A DNA stretch of 64,000 bases, from assembly GCF_013122565.1 (NCBI RefSeq), contig NZ_CP053258.1, one strand, 5' to 3'. Each line of letters starts with the position of its first letter. Within the stretch, counting starts at the first letter, position 1. Below are positions 3,739-49,096 of the stretch, one piece after another. The notes beneath the pieces are model-generated. The model saw nothing but the letters and a program-made list of their open reading frames with translations, was not told the DNA's origin and searched no databases. Origin of the DNA: Escherichia coli. Its GTDB lineage: Bacteria > Pseudomonadota > Gammaproteobacteria > Enterobacterales > Enterobacteriaceae. The position numbers and the translations under genes are program-made.

Positions 3739-3758
3739 GTTGTTGGCTGAGTGAATAT

Positions 3759-3777
3759 ACCCGGCGTTGCGCCGGGT
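3759..3777 (+). other. GC stem-loop in the nuoL-nuoM intergenic spacer
   Basis: aCCCGGCGttgCGCCGGGt perfect inverted repeat, 21 nt after the nuoL stop. Confidence 0.5.
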
Positions 3778-3968
3778 CTGTGAACTAAGAATAAATTTTA
3801 GGTAACTGTTCCTGAAGTACAGGTGTCATCGGCGAAGTCAGACCGGATACCGCCAGCGCACAGCAACCGGAGCGTACTTAAGTACGTGAGGATTGCGAGC
3901 ACTGCCGGGATTCGGGCTGGCGAGTGAGATAGCCTGAGCAGGAGTAAATATAAGGGACATACTTAGCT

Positions 3969-5504: not shown

Positions 5505-6962
5505 ATGACAATAACTCCACAAAACCTGATCGCACTGCTACCGTTGCTGATCGTCGGCTTGACGGTGGTGGTTGTGATGCTCTCCATTGCGTGGCGACGC
5601 AATCATTTCCTCAACGCTACGCTCTCGGTTATTGGGCTTAACGCGGCGCTGGTTTCGCTCTGGTTTGTTGGCCAGGCGGGCGCTATGGACGTTACGCCGC
5701 TGATGCGCGTTGATGGTTTCGCCATGCTTTACACCGGGCTGGTATTGTTGGCGAGCCTCGCCACCTGTACTTTCGCCTACCCGTGGCTTGAAGGCTATAA
5801 CGACAACAAGGATGAGTTCTACCTGTTGGTGTTAATTGCCGCGCTGGGCGGGATCCTGCTGGCGAATGCCAACCATCTGGCGTCTCTGTTCCTCGGTATC
5901 GAACTGATCTCTTTGCCGCTGTTTGGCCTGGTCGGTTACGCTTTCCGCCAGAAACGTTCGCTGGAAGCCAGTATCAAATACACTATCCTTTCTGCCGCAG
6001 CGTCTTCTTTCCTGCTGTTCGGTATGGCGCTGGTGTATGCGCAGTCTGGCGACCTGTCGTTTGTCGCGCTGGGTAAAAACCTCGGCGACGGTATGCTCAA
6101 CGAGCCGCTGTTGCTGGCAGGTTTCGGCCTGATGATTGTTGGCCTTGGCTTCAAACTCTCTCTGGTGCCGTTCCACCTGTGGACGCCAGACGTATACCAG
6201 GGCGCGCCTGCGCCGGTTTCCACTTTCCTGGCGACGGCGAGCAAAATCGCTATCTTCGGCGTGGTGATGCGTCTGTTCCTTTACGCTCCGGTGGGTGACA
6301 GTGAAGCGATTCGCGTGGTGCTGGCGATTATCGCCTTTGCCTCTATCATCTTCGGTAACCTGATGGCACTGAGCCAGACCAACATCAAACGTCTGCTCGG
6401 TTACTCATCTATCTCTCACCTCGGCTATCTGCTGGTGGCGCTGATTGCGCTGCAAACGGGCGAGATGTCGATGGAAGCGGTAGGAGTTTACCTGGCCGGT
6501 TATCTGTTCAGCAGCCTCGGCGCGTTCGGCGTGGTCAGCCTGATGTCCAGCCCGTATCGTGGCCCGGATGCTGATTCCCTGTTCTCTTACCGCGGTCTGT
6601 TCTGGCATCGCCCGATCCTCGCGGCGGTGATGACGGTGATGATGCTGTCTCTGGCCGGTATCCCGATGACGCTGGGCTTTATCGGTAAGTTCTACGTGCT
6701 GGCGGTCGGTGTCCAGGCACACTTGTGGTGGCTGGTGGGTGCCGTGGTTGTCGGTTCGGCAATCGGCCTCTACTACTACCTGCGCGTGGCGGTGAGCCTG
6801 TATCTTCACGCCCCGGAACAACCGGGTCGCGATGCACCGTCAAACTGGCAGTACAGCGCGGGCGGTATCGTGGTGCTGATTTCTGCACTGTTGGTACTGG
6901 TGCTGGGTGTATGGCCACAACCGCTGATTAGTATTGTGCGTTTGGCAATGCCGCTGATGTAA
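5505..6962 (+). CDS. nuoN: NADH-quinone oxidoreductase subunit N (antiporter-like)
   Basis: 485-aa membrane protein; last gene of the nuo operon; followed by a hairpin plus T-run. Confidence 0.96.
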
Positions 6963-6983
6963 TCTGTTAGTTTGTAAGTCAGA

Positions 6984-7012
6984 AAGCCGCCGACATGTTC
7001 GGCGGTTTTTTT
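6984..7012. terminator. Rho-independent terminator after nuoN (A-run/hairpin/T7; plausibly bidirectional with convergent yfbM)
   Basis: aaagCCGCCGAcatgtTCGGCGGttttttt read directly; coordinates +/-2. Confidence 0.7.
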
Positions 7013-7027
7013 GGTGCCCTGACACCA

Positions 7028-7531
7028 TCACCCAACAATAACCGTCAGCGCATGATTCCCTTGTTGCAGCATACGTCTGTACGCACTAATCAGCTTTTCC
7101 ATATCGAGCATAATCGAGGCAAAGAGTTGCCCCTCTAACTCTTCTGAAAAGGTCACTCCCGGATAAATCTCCATTTCATTGAGTCGCTTAATGGAAAACT
7201 GTTTACGCAGCACATTCCGGTCAAGTGCCTCCAGACGGTCGATGGTGGCGGCTAACTCCTGATTCCATGTCAATCCCAGGAAACCATCTATGCCATCTTC
7301 GAGGCTGTGTTCACCAAGCACGGCACGACTCAGCGGATCATTCTTCGCGGGATCAAAAGCAGAGGTGCCTGTCAGCCCAAAGTGTAAAAAATCCCAGCGT
7401 TTATCAATATCCAGTCGGCGTAATCCTGAAAGCGTGTCATGTATATTATCCATCAAAGGTTTTTCAGTAGACTCAAGCAGTTGATTAATCTTTTCTGAGT
7501 CAATTTCTGCAAAATAGCCAATCATTCCCAT
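7028..7531 (-). CDS. yfbM: DUF1877-family protein YfbM
   Basis: 167-aa translation MGMIGYFAEIDSEKINQLLE... recognised as YfbM. Confidence 0.85.
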   Translation of the reverse strand: MGMIGYFAEIDSEKINQLLESTEKPLMDNIHDTLSGLRRLDIDKRWDFLHFGLTGTSAFDPAKNDPLSRAVLGEHSLEDGIDGFLGLTWNQELAATIDRLEALDRNVLRKQFSIKRLNEMEIYPGVTFSEELEGQLFASIMLDMEKLISAYRRMLQQGNHALTVIVG

Positions 7532-7633: not shown

Positions 7634-8605
7634 TTATTTACTGTTGTATAACAAAGTTATAACTCCATCCACTACCTGAGCCATTTTCTGATAATTCAAT
7701 CTGTCTGCGGTATCACCGGGCAAGTGGTATTGTTTATTACGATAAAAAGCGGTGTCAGTAATCATTACGGCGGGAATATCGTGTTGCCAATAATTAAGGT
7801 GATCAGAGAAATCAATACCGGGAATAAACCCTGGGGCATTCATAGAATAAACAGATAAATCCCGGGATGACAACAATGCCGCTTTTACCTGACGAACGGC
7901 GTTGATATCCTGCATTCTGCCGACCACGGCAATAAAGTCTCCCCGATCGGGATAAAGCCAGGACATTGCCGGGTAAGGGTAATTCTGGCTTCCAGGCGCA
8001 GAGTCGTAATAGCCAATCATCTCCAGTGCTATCATTAATTTGACTGGACGCTCAAGCGAAGCTGCATGCACCGCGCTCCCCATTTCATCGCTACGAAAGA
8101 AGGGCGGTTCTTCCGACGCATAGGCGACCAGCTGCACGCCTGTTTTCGGTACTTGCTGATGTAACAAACGTGCCAGTTCGAGTAATCCTGCCACACCGCT
8201 GGCGTTATCATCCGCGCCCGGCGTATAGGTCAATTGATCGTTTTCATAACTGCTGGCAGAGTCATAGTGCGCACCAATAATAATCAGCGGTCCATCGGTA
8301 GGACCATAATCAGCAACAATGTTTTTGTAGGGGCCACCCGTAATGGGGACGTCCAGCGAGGTAACTCTGGCACCGCTACTGACAAAGACCTCTTTTATAT
8401 ACTCTGCGGACCTATTCAGATTATCAATATTGTCGGCACTACGTGGATGCACAGTTTGTGTAAGATAACGAACTGTTTTTTCTAATTGCTCAGGACTTGC
8501 GTGTCGGGGCGTTGACGGTAATGCATTGACCCAAGGTTGGTAAAAAATAATCATAGGGAGTGAAAACACAAATAATACAATAAAAGCAAAGATTATTTTT
8601 TTCAT
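7634..8605 (-). CDS. yfbL: M28-family zinc aminopeptidase-like protein YfbL, N-terminal membrane anchor/signal
   Basis: M28 metal-ligand motifs (GAHYDS, GADDNASG, YASEEPPFF); start set at the ATG (MKKIIF...) two codons inside the track ORF, which begins with TTG. Confidence 0.85.
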   Translation of the reverse strand: MKKIIFAFIVLFVFSLPMIIFYQPWVNALPSTPRHASPEQLEKTVRYLTQTVHPRSADNIDNLNRSAEYIKEVFVSSGARVTSLDVPITGGPYKNIVADYGPTDGPLIIIGAHYDSASSYENDQLTYTPGADDNASGVAGLLELARLLHQQVPKTGVQLVAYASEEPPFFRSDEMGSAVHAASLERPVKLMIALEMIGYYDSAPGSQNYPYPAMSWLYPDRGDFIAVVGRMQDINAVRQVKAALLSSRDLSVYSMNAPGFIPGIDFSDHLNYWQHDIPAVMITDTAFYRNKQYHLPGDTADRLNYQKMAQVVDGVITLLYNSK

Positions 8606-8742
8606 ATGCAAATTATTAATGGGTTGCGTTGTTGAATCATTACTTGCTATGGGTTTCGATATTGTATTTTATTAAGATTAGCAGGATTATACAAAGAGTA
8701 TATTTTATGTCTGGTGCCTGAGTTTATTTAAAAGGATTTTAT

Positions 8743-10470
8743 ATGCGAAATAAAAATATAATCATGTTGCTTATGAGTAGTTTGATTTTGTCAGGATGTG
8801 GGCCGGAACCTGAGAATAAGGAAAGTCAGCAACAACAACCCAGTACTCCCACAGAGCAGCAAGTGCTTGCCGCGCAGCAAGCTGCAATAAAAGAGGCTGA
8901 GCAAAGCGCCGCCGCCGCGAAAGCCTTGGCCCAGCAAGAAGTGCAACAATATTCAGACAAACAGGCTTTACAGGGGCGATTGCAGGAAGCGCCAACATTT
9001 GCAAGAGCGGCTAAAGCAAAAGCTACACATATCGCAAATCCAGGAACCGCTCGCTACCAGCAGTTCGATGATAATCCGGTTAAGCAGGTAGCGCAAAATC
9101 CGTTGGCGACGTTTAGCCTTGACGTCGACACTGGCAGTTATGCGAATGTACGGCGTTTCCTCAATCAAGGGCTGTTACCTCCGCCAGACGCTGTGCGGGT
9201 GGAGGAGATAGTCAATTATTTCCCGTCTGACTGGGATATCAAAGACAAACAATCTATTCCGGCCACTAAGCCAATACCTTTCGCTATGCGCTACGAACTG
9301 GCACCTGCGCCGTGGAATGAACAGCGAACATTGCTGAAAGTTGATATCCTGGCGAAAGATCATAAAAGTGAAGAGTTACCAGCTTCTAATCTGGTCTTTC
9401 TTATCGACACTTCTGGTTCAATGATTTCTGATGAACGTTTGCCACTTATCCAGTCTTCGTTGAAATTATTGGTCAAAGAACTTCGTGAGCAGGATAACAT
9501 TGCCATCGTGACCTACGCTGGCGACACCCGTATTGCGTTGCCTTCTGTCTCCAGTAGTCACAAGGCGGAAATTAATGCCGCAATTGATTCGCTGGATGCC
9601 GAAGGCAGTACCAATGGCGGTGCCGGGCTGGAACTGGCTTATCAGCAGGCGGCGAAGGGGTTTATTAAGGGCGGTATCAATCGCATTTTATTGGCCACTG
9701 ACGGTGACTTTAACGTTGGTATTGACGATCCAAAATCGATTGAATCAATGGTCAAAAAACAGCGGGAGTCCGGTGTTACTCTGTCGACGTTTGGCGTGGG
9801 GGATGACAATTACAACGAGGCAATGATGGTGCGAATTGCCGATGTTGGCAACGGTAACTACAGCTACATTGATACCCTCTCTGAAGCGCAGAAAGTATTG
9901 AACAGTGAAATGCGGCAGACGTTGATTACCGTAGCAAAAGATGTCAAAGCGCAAATTGAGTTTAACCCCGCGTGGGTAACGGAATACCGTCAGATTGGTT
10001 ATGAAAAGCGCCAACTTCGGGCGGAAGATTTTAATAACGACAACGTTGATGCGGGGGATATTGGCGCAGGCAAACATATAACGTTGTTATTTGAATTAAC
10101 GCTGAACGGGCAAAAAGCATCAATTGATAAGTTACGCTATGCCCCGGATAACAAATCAGCGAAATCGGACAAAACGAAAGAACTGGCCTGGTTAAAAATT
10201 CGCTGGAAATACCCGCAGGGAAAAGAAAGTCAGTTAGTTGAACTCCCGCTGGGGCCAACAATAAACGCGCCCTCTGAAGATATGCGTTTTCGCGCAGCAG
10301 TAGCTGCATATGGGCAAAAGTTACGCGGTTCTGAATACCTGAACAATACCTCCTGGCAGCAAATCAAACAGTGGGCTGAGCAGGCAAAAGGGGATGATCC
10401 ACAGGGTTACAGGGCGGAATTTATTCGCTTGATTGAACTGGCGGATGGTGTGACTGACATCGGTCAGTGA
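8743..10470 (+). CDS. yfbK: von Willebrand factor A-domain lipoprotein YfbK
   Basis: Lipobox LSGC after signal peptide; Gln/Ala-rich linker; MIDAS motif DTSGS (LVFLIDTSGSM); 575 aa. Confidence 0.85.
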   Translation: MRNKNIIMLLMSSLILSGCGPEPENKESQQQQPSTPTEQQVLAAQQAAIKEAEQSAAAAKALAQQEVQQYSDKQALQGRLQEAPTFARAAKAKATHIANPGTARYQQFDDNPVKQVAQNPLATFSLDVDTGSYANVRRFLNQGLLPPPDAVRVEEIVNYFPSDWDIKDKQSIPATKPIPFAMRYELAPAPWNEQRTLLKVDILAKDHKSEELPASNLVFLIDTSGSMISDERLPLIQSSLKLLVKELREQDNIAIVTYAGDTRIALPSVSSSHKAEINAAIDSLDAEGSTNGGAGLELAYQQAAKGFIKGGINRILLATDGDFNVGIDDPKSIESMVKKQRESGVTLSTFGVGDDNYNEAMMVRIADVGNGNYSYIDTLSEAQKVLNSEMRQTLITVAKDVKAQIEFNPAWVTEYRQIGYEKRQLRAEDFNNDNVDAGDIGAGKHITLLFELTLNGQKASIDKLRYAPDNKSAKSDKTKELAWLKIRWKYPQGKESQLVELPLGPTINAPSEDMRFRAAVAAYGQKLRGSEYLNNTSWQQIKQWAEQAKGDDPQGYRAEFIRLIELADGVTDIGQ

Positions 10471-36474: not shown

Positions 36475-36696
36475 TTAGTGGTTATTCGCTGCCAGATCGG
36501 CTTCGCTTAGCTGGGTGGCCGCGAGCACCAGGTCACGATCAATGCCCTGTTCCAGCATGCGCAAAGCAATTTTAATGGCTTGTTCATGCATACCTTCCTG
36601 CAAACCTTCTAATTTACCTTGCTGCAAACCTACTAATTTACCTTCTTGCCAGCCAATTTGATGTCCTTCCTGCCGTAGCCGTTCAGCAATAGTCAT
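36475..36696 (-). CDS. ypaA: Free-standing duplicate of the Rpn (YhgA-like) C-terminal tail domain, with expanded 8-aa repeats
   Basis: 73 aa from ATG ([51 protein letters not shown]...); AAGGAG RBS 8 nt upstream; near-identical to the YfaD C-terminus apart from a 48-nt insertion. Confidence 0.6.
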   Translation of the reverse strand: MTIAERLRQEGHQIGWQEGKLVGLQQGKLEGLQEGMHEQAIKIALRMLEQGIDRDLVLAATQLSEADLAANNH

Positions 36697-36708
36697 CAAT
36701 CTCTCCTT

Positions 36709-36879
36709 TTAATGACAGTTCGGAATATCAGCATCAGTGAGTTGGGTTGCCGCCAGCACAATCTCACGTTCAAAGCCCTGCTCCAGCATGCGCAAAGCAA
36801 TTTTAATGGCTTGTTCATGCATACCTTCCTGCCAGCCAATTTGATGTCCTTCCTGCCGTAGCCGTTCAGCAATAGTCAT
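36709..36879 (-). CDS. Putative intragenic small protein (in-frame C-terminal 56 aa of RpnE with its own RBS and ATG)
   Basis: Inside rpnE, AAGGAGAG is followed 4 nt later by an ATG ([11 protein letters not shown]...); the same RBS-ATG context is reproduced at ypaA. Confidence 0.45.
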
Positions 36880-37608
36880 CAATCTCTCCTTTTGTAGTGG
36901 TGAACGTTCGGCAATCTCCTCAATAAAACGGGTGAAACGGGAGGTATCGCCGCATTGCAGCAGATAATTAAACAGTGTTTGTAGCTGGCTGTCATTAGTG
37001 AAGCCTTTAACCAAAAGCGTGGTGATCCTGTCGACCATACCGATTAAATCGCGGTCGCGAATATGCTTTTGAATCAGTTCAAGCAGAGCTATACGCCGAT
37101 GTTGCATGATCTCATCGTCAGGTACGATGGTGATATCCACCAACGGAAAAGCTTCGGTGTACAACTGCCGGGCAAGTTGCGGATCGTCAAACTCATCCAG
37201 CCAGTTAAGTGAGTACGGGTAGGGCGAGGTTTCGCCATGATAAAACAGCAATGGCACCACCAGCGGAACTCTGTCATAGCCTTTATCCAGGTGACGCTGC
37301 ATGGCGGCAGTGGCATAGCGCATTAGCCGAAAAGCCATATTCTTTTCTGCAGAGCTTTGATGTTCAATCACGCAGTAGATATAACCGTCACCGTCGCTGG
37401 TTTCCACGGACCACAAAACATCCGAGTAGTAAGCGCGTAAACTTTTTTCAATAAAACTGGTGGGTTCCAGGCGTAAGGTTTGCAGGTTGCAAAGCTTGCG
37501 CAGCGGCTCTGGTAGATGTATTTCCAGAAAATCCCGTGCGGTTTCGGGTGTGAACATAAAGGTTTTAAACACCGCATCATGCGGGGAGGAGGTTGTTGAT
37601 TCGGTCAT
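36709..37608 (-). CDS. rpnE: Rpn-family (YhgA-like, transposase_31/PD-(D/E)xK) recombination-promoting nuclease
   Basis: 299 aa; N-terminal HDAVFK and ...[10 protein letters not shown]... motifs typical of YhgA-like nucleases; old name yfaD. Confidence 0.85.
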
Positions 37609-44618: not shown

Positions 44619-45497
44619 TCAAATTTTTCCACTCTCCACTAATTGTTCCGTGCACATTTGCAGTAAAAACAGTGGGCTGCCTTCTACCGGCTTTTCTTTA
44701 GCCAGCAACGAAATCTGTCGATAGAAGGTTGGTTCGAGAGGAACGGAACACAATTCACCTGCAATGGTTTTCAGAGTTAACTCTGGTAATAAGGCGATAC
44801 CTAATCCCTGTCGAATAAAACTGATCGCTGTATCCGGGTGATTAAATTCATATTTTATCTGCGGGGTAATATTCTTTTCTTTAAATAACGTCATAATGCT
44901 TAATTCATAGCGCCCTTTACTAATAATTAACGATTCACCCATTAGCTCTTCCACTGTAATAGTGCTGCTTTTTGCCAGAGCATGGTCGGGCGGTAACACT
45001 ACGGTGAATTTATCCTGATAAATGGGCACGGAGTACATTCCGCTTACCGGAAAATGAACAAAACCGGCATCAATGGATTCATTCTGAAGCGAATCAATAA
45101 TCGCTGTGCTATTTTCCTCAAAAGGAATAATTTTTATATTCGGATGATGAATTTCAAAGTAGCGAATCACAACCGGTAAGATACAGGCGCAGACGCTGGG
45201 GAAACAACCAAGTCGCAGCGTTCTTTGAGGGTTCTGCTTTTCCTGTTCGGCTATCTCTTTTACTGCGTTAACTTCCCGATTAATGGCGCGCAGATGATGC
45301 ACAATGCGGTGGCCTGCTGTGGTCAGTTGTATAGTTTTACGGCGATCGCGTAACAGTATATTCACGCCAAGTTCTTGTTCGAGGGCAGCAATTGCCTGGC
45401 TTACCGCCGACTGCGTCATGAACAATCGCTTGCTGGCTTCAGTAAAGCCACCGTAATCCAGCACGGCGAGTAAAGAATTTATTTGGGTAAGAGTCAT
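44619..45497 (-). CDS. yfaH: LysR-family transcriptional regulator (intact)
   Basis: 292 aa; N-terminal HTH (FTEASKRLFMTQSAVSQAIAALE) plus LysR substrate-binding domain; symbol from position (K-12 yfaH is a fragment). Confidence 0.75.
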   Translation of the reverse strand: MTLTQINSLLAVLDYGGFTEASKRLFMTQSAVSQAIAALEQELGVNILLRDRRKTIQLTTAGHRIVHHLRAINREVNAVKEIAEQEKQNPQRTLRLGCFPSVCACILPVVIRYFEIHHPNIKIIPFEENSTAIIDSLQNESIDAGFVHFPVSGMYSVPIYQDKFTVVLPPDHALAKSSTITVEELMGESLIISKGRYELSIMTLFKEKNITPQIKYEFNHPDTAISFIRQGLGIALLPELTLKTIAGELCSVPLEPTFYRQISLLAKEKPVEGSPLFLLQMCTEQLVESGKI

Positions 45498-45648
45498 TAG
45501 GGTGTACTAATCAATAATATTAAAACGATTAATTTCTCTAATAGCATGCCGCCATTTATACTTTTGTTCTGCAAAGTACATCACAATTTGACGCAACCGC
45601 AGTAACGGGAGTGTTGTCTGCGTGCGTCATCCTGATAGGCGGTAGGGT

Positions 45649-46839
45649 ATGAAAGAGAAGTTATGGACGAAGGATTTTTGGGCAATAACCATCATCAGCT
45701 TTATTATTTTCTTCGTCTTTTATGTTTTACTAACATTGTTGCCAATTTATATCTCTGACCGCTTACATGCCTCTCCTGATAAAGCCGGTTTGTTGGTGAC
45801 TTTATTTTTAATTGCCGCCATTGTTATTCGCCCCTTTGCCGGGCAATGGGTGGGTAAATATTCGAATAAAACTATTCTGGTGCTCTCTTCTCTGGCCTTT
45901 TTATTGGTCACAGCGTTGTATCCTTTTTGCCACTCAATTGAATCACTACTTTTTATTCGGGTGCTTCATGGTATTACCTTCGGGGTTATCACTACGGTAA
46001 AAGGAACGATTTCCGCGCGGCTGATCCCGGCCTCCCGACGTGGGGAGGGCATCAGTTTTTTCTCCCTGGCAATGGGGCTGGCAATGGTGGTCGGGCCGTG
46101 GATTGGTCTGAATATGGCGCGCTGGGAAGCCTTTAATCTGGCTTTCTGGCTATGCACGGGCGTGGCAGCGGTGGGGATTATCCTGTCGCTGATTATGACA
46201 GTGCCACCGGTTATCAGCCATGCTGATGGTTCAAAGCCGAAAGTGGGCTTCGCCGCCATGTTCGATCGCGCAGCGTTGCCATTTGCGATGGTCACCTTTT
46301 TTATGACCTTTTCGTATGCCGGGGTTTCTGCTTTTCTGGCGCTTTATGCTCGCGAACTTAACCTGATGTCGGCGGCCAGTAATTTCCTGCTTTGCTATGC
46401 CATCTTCCTGATGATCTGCCGTACCTTTACCGGCAATGTCTGCGACAAAAAAGGACCGAAATATGTGGTTTACCCTTGCCTTGTGTTCTTTACGGTAGGA
46501 CTGGTGGTTCTCGGCTACACCCAGGGAAGCATAATGATGGTTATTTCTGGCGCGTTGATTGGTATCGGGTATGGTTCTGTGACGCCAGTTTTTCAGACGC
46601 AGATTATCAGTTCAGTGGAGCCGCATAAAATCGGTGTCGCAAACTCTCTCTTCTTCAATGCGATGGATGCAGGCCTGGCGCTGGGAGCCTTTGTGATGGG
46701 GATGATGGTTGCACATACTGGCTATCGGATGATCTATCTGCTGGGCGCACTATTAGTGGTAGTGGCTGGTGGAGTCTATGCGCTGCAAATGAAGGGTAAA
46801 AGCCCTGTCGCGCTAGTAGTGGCAAAAGAAATTCATTAA
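45649..46839 (+). CDS. MFS transporter (12 TM), divergent from the LysR regulator
   Basis: 396-aa hydrophobic MFS-type translation; substrate not inferable. Confidence 0.8.
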   Translation: MKEKLWTKDFWAITIISFIIFFVFYVLLTLLPIYISDRLHASPDKAGLLVTLFLIAAIVIRPFAGQWVGKYSNKTILVLSSLAFLLVTALYPFCHSIESLLFIRVLHGITFGVITTVKGTISARLIPASRRGEGISFFSLAMGLAMVVGPWIGLNMARWEAFNLAFWLCTGVAAVGIILSLIMTVPPVISHADGSKPKVGFAAMFDRAALPFAMVTFFMTFSYAGVSAFLALYARELNLMSAASNFLLCYAIFLMICRTFTGNVCDKKGPKYVVYPCLVFFTVGLVVLGYTQGSIMMVISGALIGIGYGSVTPVFQTQIISSVEPHKIGVANSLFFNAMDAGLALGAFVMGMMVAHTGYRMIYLLGALLVVVAGGVYALQMKGKSPVALVVAKEIH

Positions 46840-49008: not shown

Positions 49009-49044
49009 GAGTGTGTCCTGTGGTTTTATTACCCCTCACCCTAA

Positions 49045-49066
49045 CCCTCTCCCGCAAGGGGAGAGG
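49045..49066. other. GC-rich palindromic hairpin in the transcribed nrdA-nrdB spacer
   Basis: CCCTCTCCCgcaaGGGAGAGGG preceded by cccctcaccctaa. Confidence 0.55.
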
Positions 49067-49096
49067 GGACGGTTTGGTGCAAAGGCTGGGGGATTA

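Follow-up and report, generated by a model that had tools for sequence, protein, structure and literature searches.

Direct adjacency of nuoN and yfbM as the common form of a multi-allelic junction in Escherichia coli

The closest described counterpart of the locus examined here is that of Escherichia coli K-12 MG1655, in which nuoN, yfbP, yfbO, yfbN, and yfbM, which we take to be b2276 to b2272, are neighbours. In the MG1655 record, yfbM is located at 2386937-2387440, yfbN at 2387713-2388429, yfbO at 2388638-2389060, yfbP at 2389119-2389967, and nuoN at 2390051-2391508. Read in the orientation used here, the order is nuoN, yfbP (-), yfbO (-), yfbN (+), and yfbM (-), with 2,610 bp between the stop codons of nuoN and yfbM. 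A second arrangement, the E. fergusonii-type cassette, occupies the same slot, from the nuoN terminator to the yfbM stop codon, and consists of a yfbN-like gene and a 191-aa SMI1/KNR4 (SUKH-1)-like gene, the latter being the intact form of a gene that persists in K-12 as a fragment. More generally, Touchon et al. in 2009 and Oliveira et al. in 2017 are said to have described hotspots of horizontal transfer that lie between conserved core genes and are devoid of mobile-element genes, and Ju, Li and Liu reportedly found in 2019, by full-length RNA profiling, bidirectional intrinsic terminators between convergent E. coli genes.

The window, that is, the whole 64-kb stretch of E. coli DNA that was analysed, contains nuoN, yfbM, yfbL, and yfbK in the same order and orientation as MG1655 and with a DNA identity of 98%, but the stop codons of nuoN and yfbM are only 65 bp apart (Table 1). 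The original prediction had described this direct adjacency and its 65-bp spacer, and both the coordinates and the two stop codons agree with it; it had also given the K-12 gene order and expected 2-3 kb at the corresponding place, and the MG1655 record has the same order and the distance given above. The adjacency is not present in MG1655. Where the window has 16 bp, megablast alignment showed that K-12 has 2,561 bp comprising three genes and a pseudogene fragment, which locates the proposed indel junction at 7011-7026. The absence of the K-12 genes yfbN, yfbO, and yfbP was likewise borne out, as tblastn and blastn detected no trace of any of them in the whole window; the E. fergusonii-type cassette is also absent from the window. 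That the window is not K-12 DNA can be concluded independently of the junction, because it is colinear with MG1655 throughout at 96.7-98.9% identity and carries three other indels. Among complete E. coli genomes, the best match to the window over 24 kb reached 98.5% identity, and the nearest DNA retrieved was 99.4% identical. A natural, sparsely sampled lineage of E. coli is the source of the window, which is neither K-12 nor an engineered strain.

Table 1. Coordinates of the features at the nuoN-yfbM junction, numbered from the first letter of the window.
Feature	Position	Strand	Description
nuoN	5505-6962	+	485-aa ORF, the last in the NADH dehydrogenase I (nuo) operon; TAA stop codon at 6960-6962
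65-bp spacer	6963-7027		Between the convergent stop codons of nuoN and yfbM; cassette-free ('short') allele; read directly
yfbM-side hairpins	6975-7027	-	Candidate weaker terminator; GC hairpin plus small hairpin TGGTG (7012-7016)/CACCA (7023-7027) right after the yfbM stop codon
Intrinsic-terminator-like element of the nuo transcript	6981-7012	+	AGAAA 6981-6985; stem GCCGCCGA 6986-6993; loop CATGT 6994-6998; arm TCGGCGG 6999-7005; T7 7006-7012
16 bp, TTGGTGCCCTGACACC	7011-7026		Occupies the place of the 2,561-bp yfbP-yfbO-yfbN cassette of K-12 (megablast against MG1655)
yfbM	7028-7531	-	167-aa ORF; Pfam DUF1877/YfbM, E=1.9e-34; stop codon TGA (+ strand TCA at 7028-7030)
yfbL (M28 metallopeptidase)	7634-8611	-	ORF; conserved right-hand neighbour; colinear gene annotated yfbL in K-12 and EcN
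yfbK (vWA-domain protein)	8743-10470	+	ORF; conserved right-hand neighbour; exact protein is WP_171460572.1 of E. coli

The identities of the two genes that flank the spacer were established by comparison with annotated genomes. The counterpart of the window's nuoN DNA is annotated as nuoN in 5,423 E. coli genomes (RefSeq annotation), and the window sequence is 98.2% identical to that of MG1655. DNA equivalent to the 167-aa ORF is annotated as yfbM in RefSeq genomes, and the exact protein is an E. coli sequence, WP_171460570.1, which shares 98.2% of its residues with K-12 YfbM and 96-98% with the YfbM of each Escherichia locus compared. A literature search on yfbM and DUF1877 returned only passing mentions or unrelated uses of the abbreviation.

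The frequency of each form of the junction was determined in a census set of 5,426 complete E. coli genomes. The two genes were contiguous in 4,309 of these (79%), including O157:H7, O103:H2, and EcN strains, and any match to the K-12 cassette was found in 1,015 (18.7%). All cassette copies in these 1,015 genomes are chromosomal, 985 of the genomes carry the cassette at an identity of at least 99%, and the 8-kb K-12 haplotype, extending from nuoM' to yfbK', was present at a coverage of at least 80% in 949. The 11 sampled carriers of this haplotype were 99.4-100% identical, and the flanks of sampled non-carriers were 94.9-97.3% identical to it; an E. coli B derivative is also without the cassette. 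The census shows that about 18% of complete genomes have the K-12 cassette and that the haplotype around it is nearly invariant. K-12 is the unusual genome at this junction, and direct adjacency is the majority state in E. coli. Because the short allele sits on diverse flanks and the K-12 cassette on essentially one, we infer, from the flank diversity of the sampled rows rather than from a tree, that the short allele is the older as well as the commoner one within E. coli and that the haplotype with the K-12 cassette arose recently in the species. The window very probably carries this common cassette-free allele of the nuoN-yfbM junction. A cassette-free junction is ordinary variation in accessory-gene presence or absence, of a kind that has been catalogued before.

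The spacer contains a hairpin that lies between the convergent genes nuoN (+) and yfbM (-) and folds on both strands. On the + strand, its stem begins 24 nt past the nuoN stop codon and is made up of seven GC-rich base pairs and one G·U pair, with a 5-nt loop, and is followed by seven T. The 37-nt + strand element had a folding energy of -18.6 kcal/mol compared with a mean of -7.1 for shuffled sequences (z=-5.4), none of the shuffles (0/200) being as stable, and the wider 81-nt region around the hairpin gave z=-3.9 when its folding was compared with that of shuffles. On the - strand, the two-hairpin fold reached -20 kcal/mol (z=-3.3), and the tail past the GC stem, CUUUCUGACUU, is an interrupted and poor U-tract with at most three consecutive U, compared with U7 on the + strand. 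A stem core of CCGCC/GGCGG and a T-run are kept after nuoN in every relative examined, such as E. fergusonii, Escherichia sp. E2748, a Klebsiella contig, and a Superficieibacter-like contig, and the loops vary. The hairpin of MG1655 is that of the window except for one loop base, with a T-run, TTTTTCTG, that is shorter than the window's. A consensus terminator scan made no call in the window spacer. Since the same scan also missed the hairpin in K-12, its silence was attributed to the method, and folding with shuffles was used instead; the scan probably extends the stem by pairing the A-run with the T-run, which uses up the T tail that it looks for next. A search of positions 6800-7200 against Rfam at E<=1 assigned no RNA family and gave only sub-threshold matches to families with a terminator hairpin (RNAI, sroD, and the Phe leader).

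Judged by its sequence and position, which fit a terminator, the spacer would be essentially one functional element, a hairpin with T7 that is expected to end the nuo transcript. The same hairpin, 20-40 nt past the yfbM stop codon, probably ends yfbM transcription too, less efficiently. A bidirectional terminator is therefore plausible, if weaker toward yfbM, and the 'clean bidirectional terminator' of the original prediction is half supported, the element being canonical on the + strand and having a poor U-tract on the - strand. Like the reported bidirectional intrinsic terminators, the element consists of a single GC-rich hairpin between convergent stop codons, with an A-rich run before it and a T-run after it. 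It differs from them in that the A-run is interrupted (AGAAA), which leaves only UUUCU past the stem in the reverse direction. As a separate observation, the hairpin element of E. fergusonii-type alleles is more symmetrical, for example A7-hairpin-T7 in strain WL297.

In Escherichia species, at least four alternative cassettes were found in the slot that starts after the nuoN terminator and ends at the yfbM stop codon, and each includes a YfbN-family gene. In about 24 genomes, a 1,681-bp cassette encodes a YfbO-like and a YfbN-like protein, the latter 79% identical to K-12 YfbN, without yfbP. Strain WL297 and about 14 E. coli genomes carry the form found in E. fergusonii, in which the yfbN-like gene and the 191-aa SMI1/KNR4-like gene are convergent. 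The cryptic Escherichia sp. MOD1-EC7003 has the 191-aa gene adjoining yfbM and has its right end in common with the E. fergusonii-type cassette, and Escherichia sp. E2748 has a 409-aa gene together with yfbO and yfbN. In addition, deletions mediated by IS5 or IS1 remove yfbM and its neighbours (yfbM to elaD). Short spacers homologous to that of the window were found in E. whittamii (68 bp) and in a divergent genome labelled E. coli (66 bp). Outside Escherichia, YfbN relatives of 46% identity are encoded directly after nuoN in two contigs, one of them Superficieibacter-like, with a NuoN identical to that of Superficieibacter sp. BNK-5, and the other from Klebsiella, its NuoN being a Klebsiella protein. 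The GC fraction is 0.40 in the K-12 cassette and 0.36-0.43 across all cassettes, and 0.54-0.61 in nuoM-nuoN. The locus of strain MLI104K2 was considered as an intermediate allele and rejected, as it is a frameshift-ridden, IS-disrupted locus of the K-12 type. The contig of the E. albertii representative extends only 11 bp beyond the stop codon of yfbM, which places the allele state of that species outside the comparison.

The boundaries of these cassettes were also compared. At the left junction, the terminator followed by TTTTTTTATGGT(G) is common to the short alleles and to all cassette alleles but that of K-12, which reads TTTTTCTGAAAAAG instead. At the right junction, similarity stops exactly at the yfbM stop codon in every allele, and all cassette types abut that codon. 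An 11-nt remnant in the short allele, CCCTGACACCA, matches CCCAGACATCA, a motif of the yfbO-yfbN cassettes located 7 nt from their right end, at 9/11 positions (permutation p ~0.018). This weak match is suggestive only, and even if real, the motif would be a flank in both an insertion and a deletion scenario and so would give no direction to the indel.

Homologous recombination in the conserved flanks, formed by nuoN with its terminator to the left and by yfbM to the right, may exchange the whole intergenic segment as one allele. This is proposed because two strains, the only two mosaics on which the proposal rests, have mosaic flanks. In WL297, a tract that resembles E. fergusonii runs from nuoM across the cassette as far as yfbM, and E. 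coli-like sequence resumes in yfbL; the left flank shares 97.4-99.6% identity with E. fergusonii compared with 94.6-98.4% with K-12, and the YfbM protein matches that of E. fergusonii at 100%. Strain EcN_Sk and K-12 differ in cassette state and have flanks without a mismatch in 3,563 bp up to the nuoN stop codon and in 1,105 bp rightward; the aligned left part has two mismatches in all, both in the nuoN 3' UTR. Identical flanks with a different cassette state, together with the WL297 mosaic, would make the intergenic segment the exchangeable unit. Against recombination, both crossovers of the EcN/K-12 case would have to lie no more than a few tens of bp from the junction, an unusual outcome for a single event. 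Internal deletion also erodes the cassettes. The 272 bp between yfbN and yfbM of K-12, annotated as intergenic, contain a broken copy of the 191-aa gene (aa 103-191, with stop codons and frameshifts) that is intact in the E. fergusonii-type cassette, which makes the K-12 cassette a degraded derivative of the E. fergusonii-type architecture to which yfbO and yfbP were added on the nuoN side. The locus resembles the integrase-free hotspots between core genes in that one interval holds differing low-GC accessory genes across strains and species, no integrase is seen, and the mosaic flanks suggest a double crossover in the flanks. Unlike those hotspots, the nuoN-yfbM slot is very small (0-3 kb) and all of its alternative contents include one gene family, YfbN, so that they resemble divergent forms of a single old cassette and not unrelated cargo.

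At the level of the genus, the evidence as to which state came first is divided between repeated import and an ancestral cassette followed by deletion. If the ancestor of Escherichia had a yfbN cassette after nuoN, the 65-bp spacer could be the scar of one deletion, from the terminator (…TTTTTTTATGGTG) to a short motif before the yfbM stop codon, that later became the majority form in E. coli. The presence of YfbN-family genes directly after the nuoN terminator in E. fergusonii, E2748, and the Superficieibacter-like and Klebsiella contigs could mean that the cassette is ancestral, and the terminator and TTTTTTTATGGT that short and cassette alleles have in common, the 9/11 motif match, and the deletion decay of the locus, visible in the K-12 SMI1/KNR4-like pseudogene and the IS-mediated losses of yfbM to elaD, are in keeping with such a scar. 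However, a GC content of 36-43% even in the cassette of Klebsiella, whose genome is GC-rich, argues against long residence, YfbN is rare in other genera (2-3 contigs each), and a homologous short allele is common to E. coli, E. whittamii, and the divergent lineage; the motif match, for the reasons given above, adds little. A deletion scar is possible on this evidence but is not the explanation we favour. It concerns only the deep history of the locus and does not conflict with an older short allele inside E. coli.

Two further explanations, by which the window would be an empty target or an artefact, were rejected. The low GC content, the several different cassettes held at the same site, and their sporadic distribution across genera would fit a mobile element, such as a transposon, an integrative islet, or a phage remnant, that inserted site-specifically after nuoN in K-12. 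Yet no direct or inverted terminal repeats and no target-site duplication were found at the K-12 cassette boundaries, where the junction alignment has 16 bp of the empty site replaced and not duplicated; no integrase, transposase, or recombinase is annotated in the K-12 cassette or the other cassettes examined, nor was such a domain detected in the cassette proteins with Pfam and NCBIfam. YfbN matched 0 of 50,697 phage records, and among plasmid records it was found in one 365-kb E. coli record and otherwise only as distant Hymenobacter sequences (32-33%). Together with the lack of a PADLOC defence-system match, the missing boundary repeats, mobility genes, and phage copies make a mobile element very improbable. 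Direct adjacency could also result from a collapsed assembly or, in a K-12 derivative with a reduced genome, from an engineered deletion; such strains exist, and the yfbN/yfbO/yfbP genes are mentioned in the genome report of one of them, DGF-298 (PMC10652928). This possibility is refuted almost beyond doubt by three observations: the 65-bp spacer recurs in thousands of independently finished genomes and is base-for-base the same in EcN_Sk; the window differs from MG1655 by 1.1-3.3% throughout; and a natural E. coli genome of 4.82 Mb encodes exactly the YfbM and YfbK of the window. We therefore retain the reading that the window carries a natural, cassette-free allele of the junction.

The proteins encoded in the cassettes were examined for clues to their function. 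YfbP gave only sub-threshold TPR matches in Pfam. YfbO had no match in the Pfam copy searched, and precomputed annotation lists PF27222 YfbO for it. YfbN scored 21.4 bits against UBA_4, for which the cut-off is 21.8. Its predicted structure (pLDDT 92) is small and all-helical, and the model matched UBA domains in its N-terminal part (TNK1 and the EF-Ts N-terminus, E 0.05-2) and, weakly, the DMP19 fold in its C-terminal part (TM 0.40/0.53). A profile search among 1.84 billion representatives recovered 236 YfbN-family clusters at E<=1e-3, and the distant members stand alone in unrelated neighbourhoods, with no conserved partner or system. SMI1/KNR4 is the NCBI name of the 191-aa protein, which reached 19.4 bits in Pfam, below the cut-off of 25.4. 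A defence-system reading is not supported, as PADLOC returned no match for YfbP, YfbO, YfbN, or YfbM at E<=0.01. Knock-outs of yfbO and yfbL have been reported to confer resistance to phage N4 in K-12 (preprint, bioRxiv 10.1101/2025.09.29.679331), and in a retron screen yfbO was chosen as a blocker through its genetic linkage with yfbN (10.1101/2020.06.22.160242).

More speculatively, and with a probability that we consider low, the post-nuoN slot could be an old fixed site for mutually exclusive YfbN cassettes, at which a polymorphism that predates E. coli has spread between species, and occasionally genera, through recombination in the highly conserved nuoN flank and has been kept variable by phage-linked selection. 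The partner of YfbN differs between the cassettes, being YfbO, YfbP, the 409-aa protein, or the SMI1/KNR4-like protein. If the slot is indeed that old, the empty site of the window would be one allele of a long-lived polymorphism and not a simple strain difference.

The practical value of the junction is small; it marks the window as non-K-12 and K-12 as atypical at the locus, and the multi-allelic YfbN slot and the K-12 pseudogene fragment are small additions to the known picture. Compact, free of mobile-element genes, and with several alleles, this accessory slot between core genes is a possible test case for exchange by flanking homology. For the biology of E. coli, yfbN, yfbO, and yfbP are accessory genes that are missing from about 80% of complete genomes, and K-12 phenotypes that involve them, such as the reported requirement of yfbO for infection by phage N4, therefore cannot be generalised to the species. 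In K-12, the hairpin that yfbM shares with nuoN in the window is no longer the downstream neighbour of yfbM. Because the cassette parts yfbM from this hairpin, 3'-end formation of the yfbM transcript is likely to differ between K-12 and most strains.

The stretch between yfbN and yfbM in K-12-type strains, annotated as intergenic, was found to hold a decayed fragment of an SMI1/KNR4-like gene, both in strain g62 (L001, the K-12-type locus) and in MG1655. The fragment covers residues 103–191 of a 191-aa gene and is broken by stop codons and frameshifts; the gene is intact in E. fergusonii, E. coli WL297, and Escherichia sp. MOD1-EC7003. For the neighboring cassette protein, YfbN, a high-confidence structure prediction gives an all-helical fold whose N-terminal domains are UBA-like. 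The deubiquitinase gene elaD is located three genes from the YfbN gene within the same variable region. In E. albertii NBRC 107761, the representative of its species, the contig ends 11 bp past the yfbM stop codon, and these 11 bp did not match any of the other junction alleles compared in this analysis.

To the right of the nuoN-yfbM junction, the yfbM-yfbL-yfbK-elaD stretch is unstable between E. coli strains, as judged from six E. coli loci that match this part of the window (L008, L010, L022, L025, L026, and L027). Among these loci, IS5 and IS1 insertions have removed DNA as far as elaD or rbn, some strains have lost yfbK, and others carry a frameshifted or interrupted elaD.

Comparison of the window with MG1655 revealed further differences (see table). 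Approximately 1.87 kb of the inaA-glpQ interval is missing from MG1655, where the only remnants are annotated pseudogene fragments; in the window, this interval carries a regulator gene and a 396-aa ORF on opposite strands, the latter presumably encoding an MFS-type transporter. Relative to the window, K-12 thus shows a second deletion here. The nuoL-nuoM spacer measures 224 bp in the window versus 157 bp in MG1655, and the two sequences are not alignable; a repeat-element difference is suspected. The nrdA-nrdB spacer is 73 bp long in the window and 218 bp in MG1655. Near the K-12 rpnE region, the window contains short repeated segments whose megablast pieces against MG1655 overlap and run out of order, suggesting small repeat-mediated differences.

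Coordinates of features discussed in the text
Feature	Sequence	Position	Strand
YfbN	L001	8185-8901	
Decayed SMI1/KNR4-like fragment, yfbN-yfbM gap	L001	8899-9155	-
nuoL-nuoM spacer	window	3742-3965	
Part matched by the six E. coli loci	window	7028 to ~12000	
Short repeated segments	window	36500-36900	
inaA-glpQ interval compared with MG1655	window	44619-46839	
LysR-family regulator, intact, 292 aa, between inaA and glpQ	window	44619-45497	-
396-aa ORF, between inaA and glpQ	window	45649-46839	+
nrdA-nrdB spacer	window	49022-49094	

The flanks of the junction appear mosaic in two strains. The cassette-free strain EcN_Sk, presumably derived from the probiotic Nissle 1917, is identical to the K-12-type locus in nuoL-nuoN and yfbM, with 0 mismatches over 3,563 bp on the left and 1,105 bp on the right. 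Such DNA identity is unexpected across different phylogroups, to which EcN_Sk and K-12 belong, and suggests that the two have a common imported tract at nuoL-nuoN/yfbM. In WL297, an E. fergusonii-like segment extends from nuoM to yfbM and includes the yfbN-like and 191-aa genes; by its sequence, this segment looks like an inter-species import.
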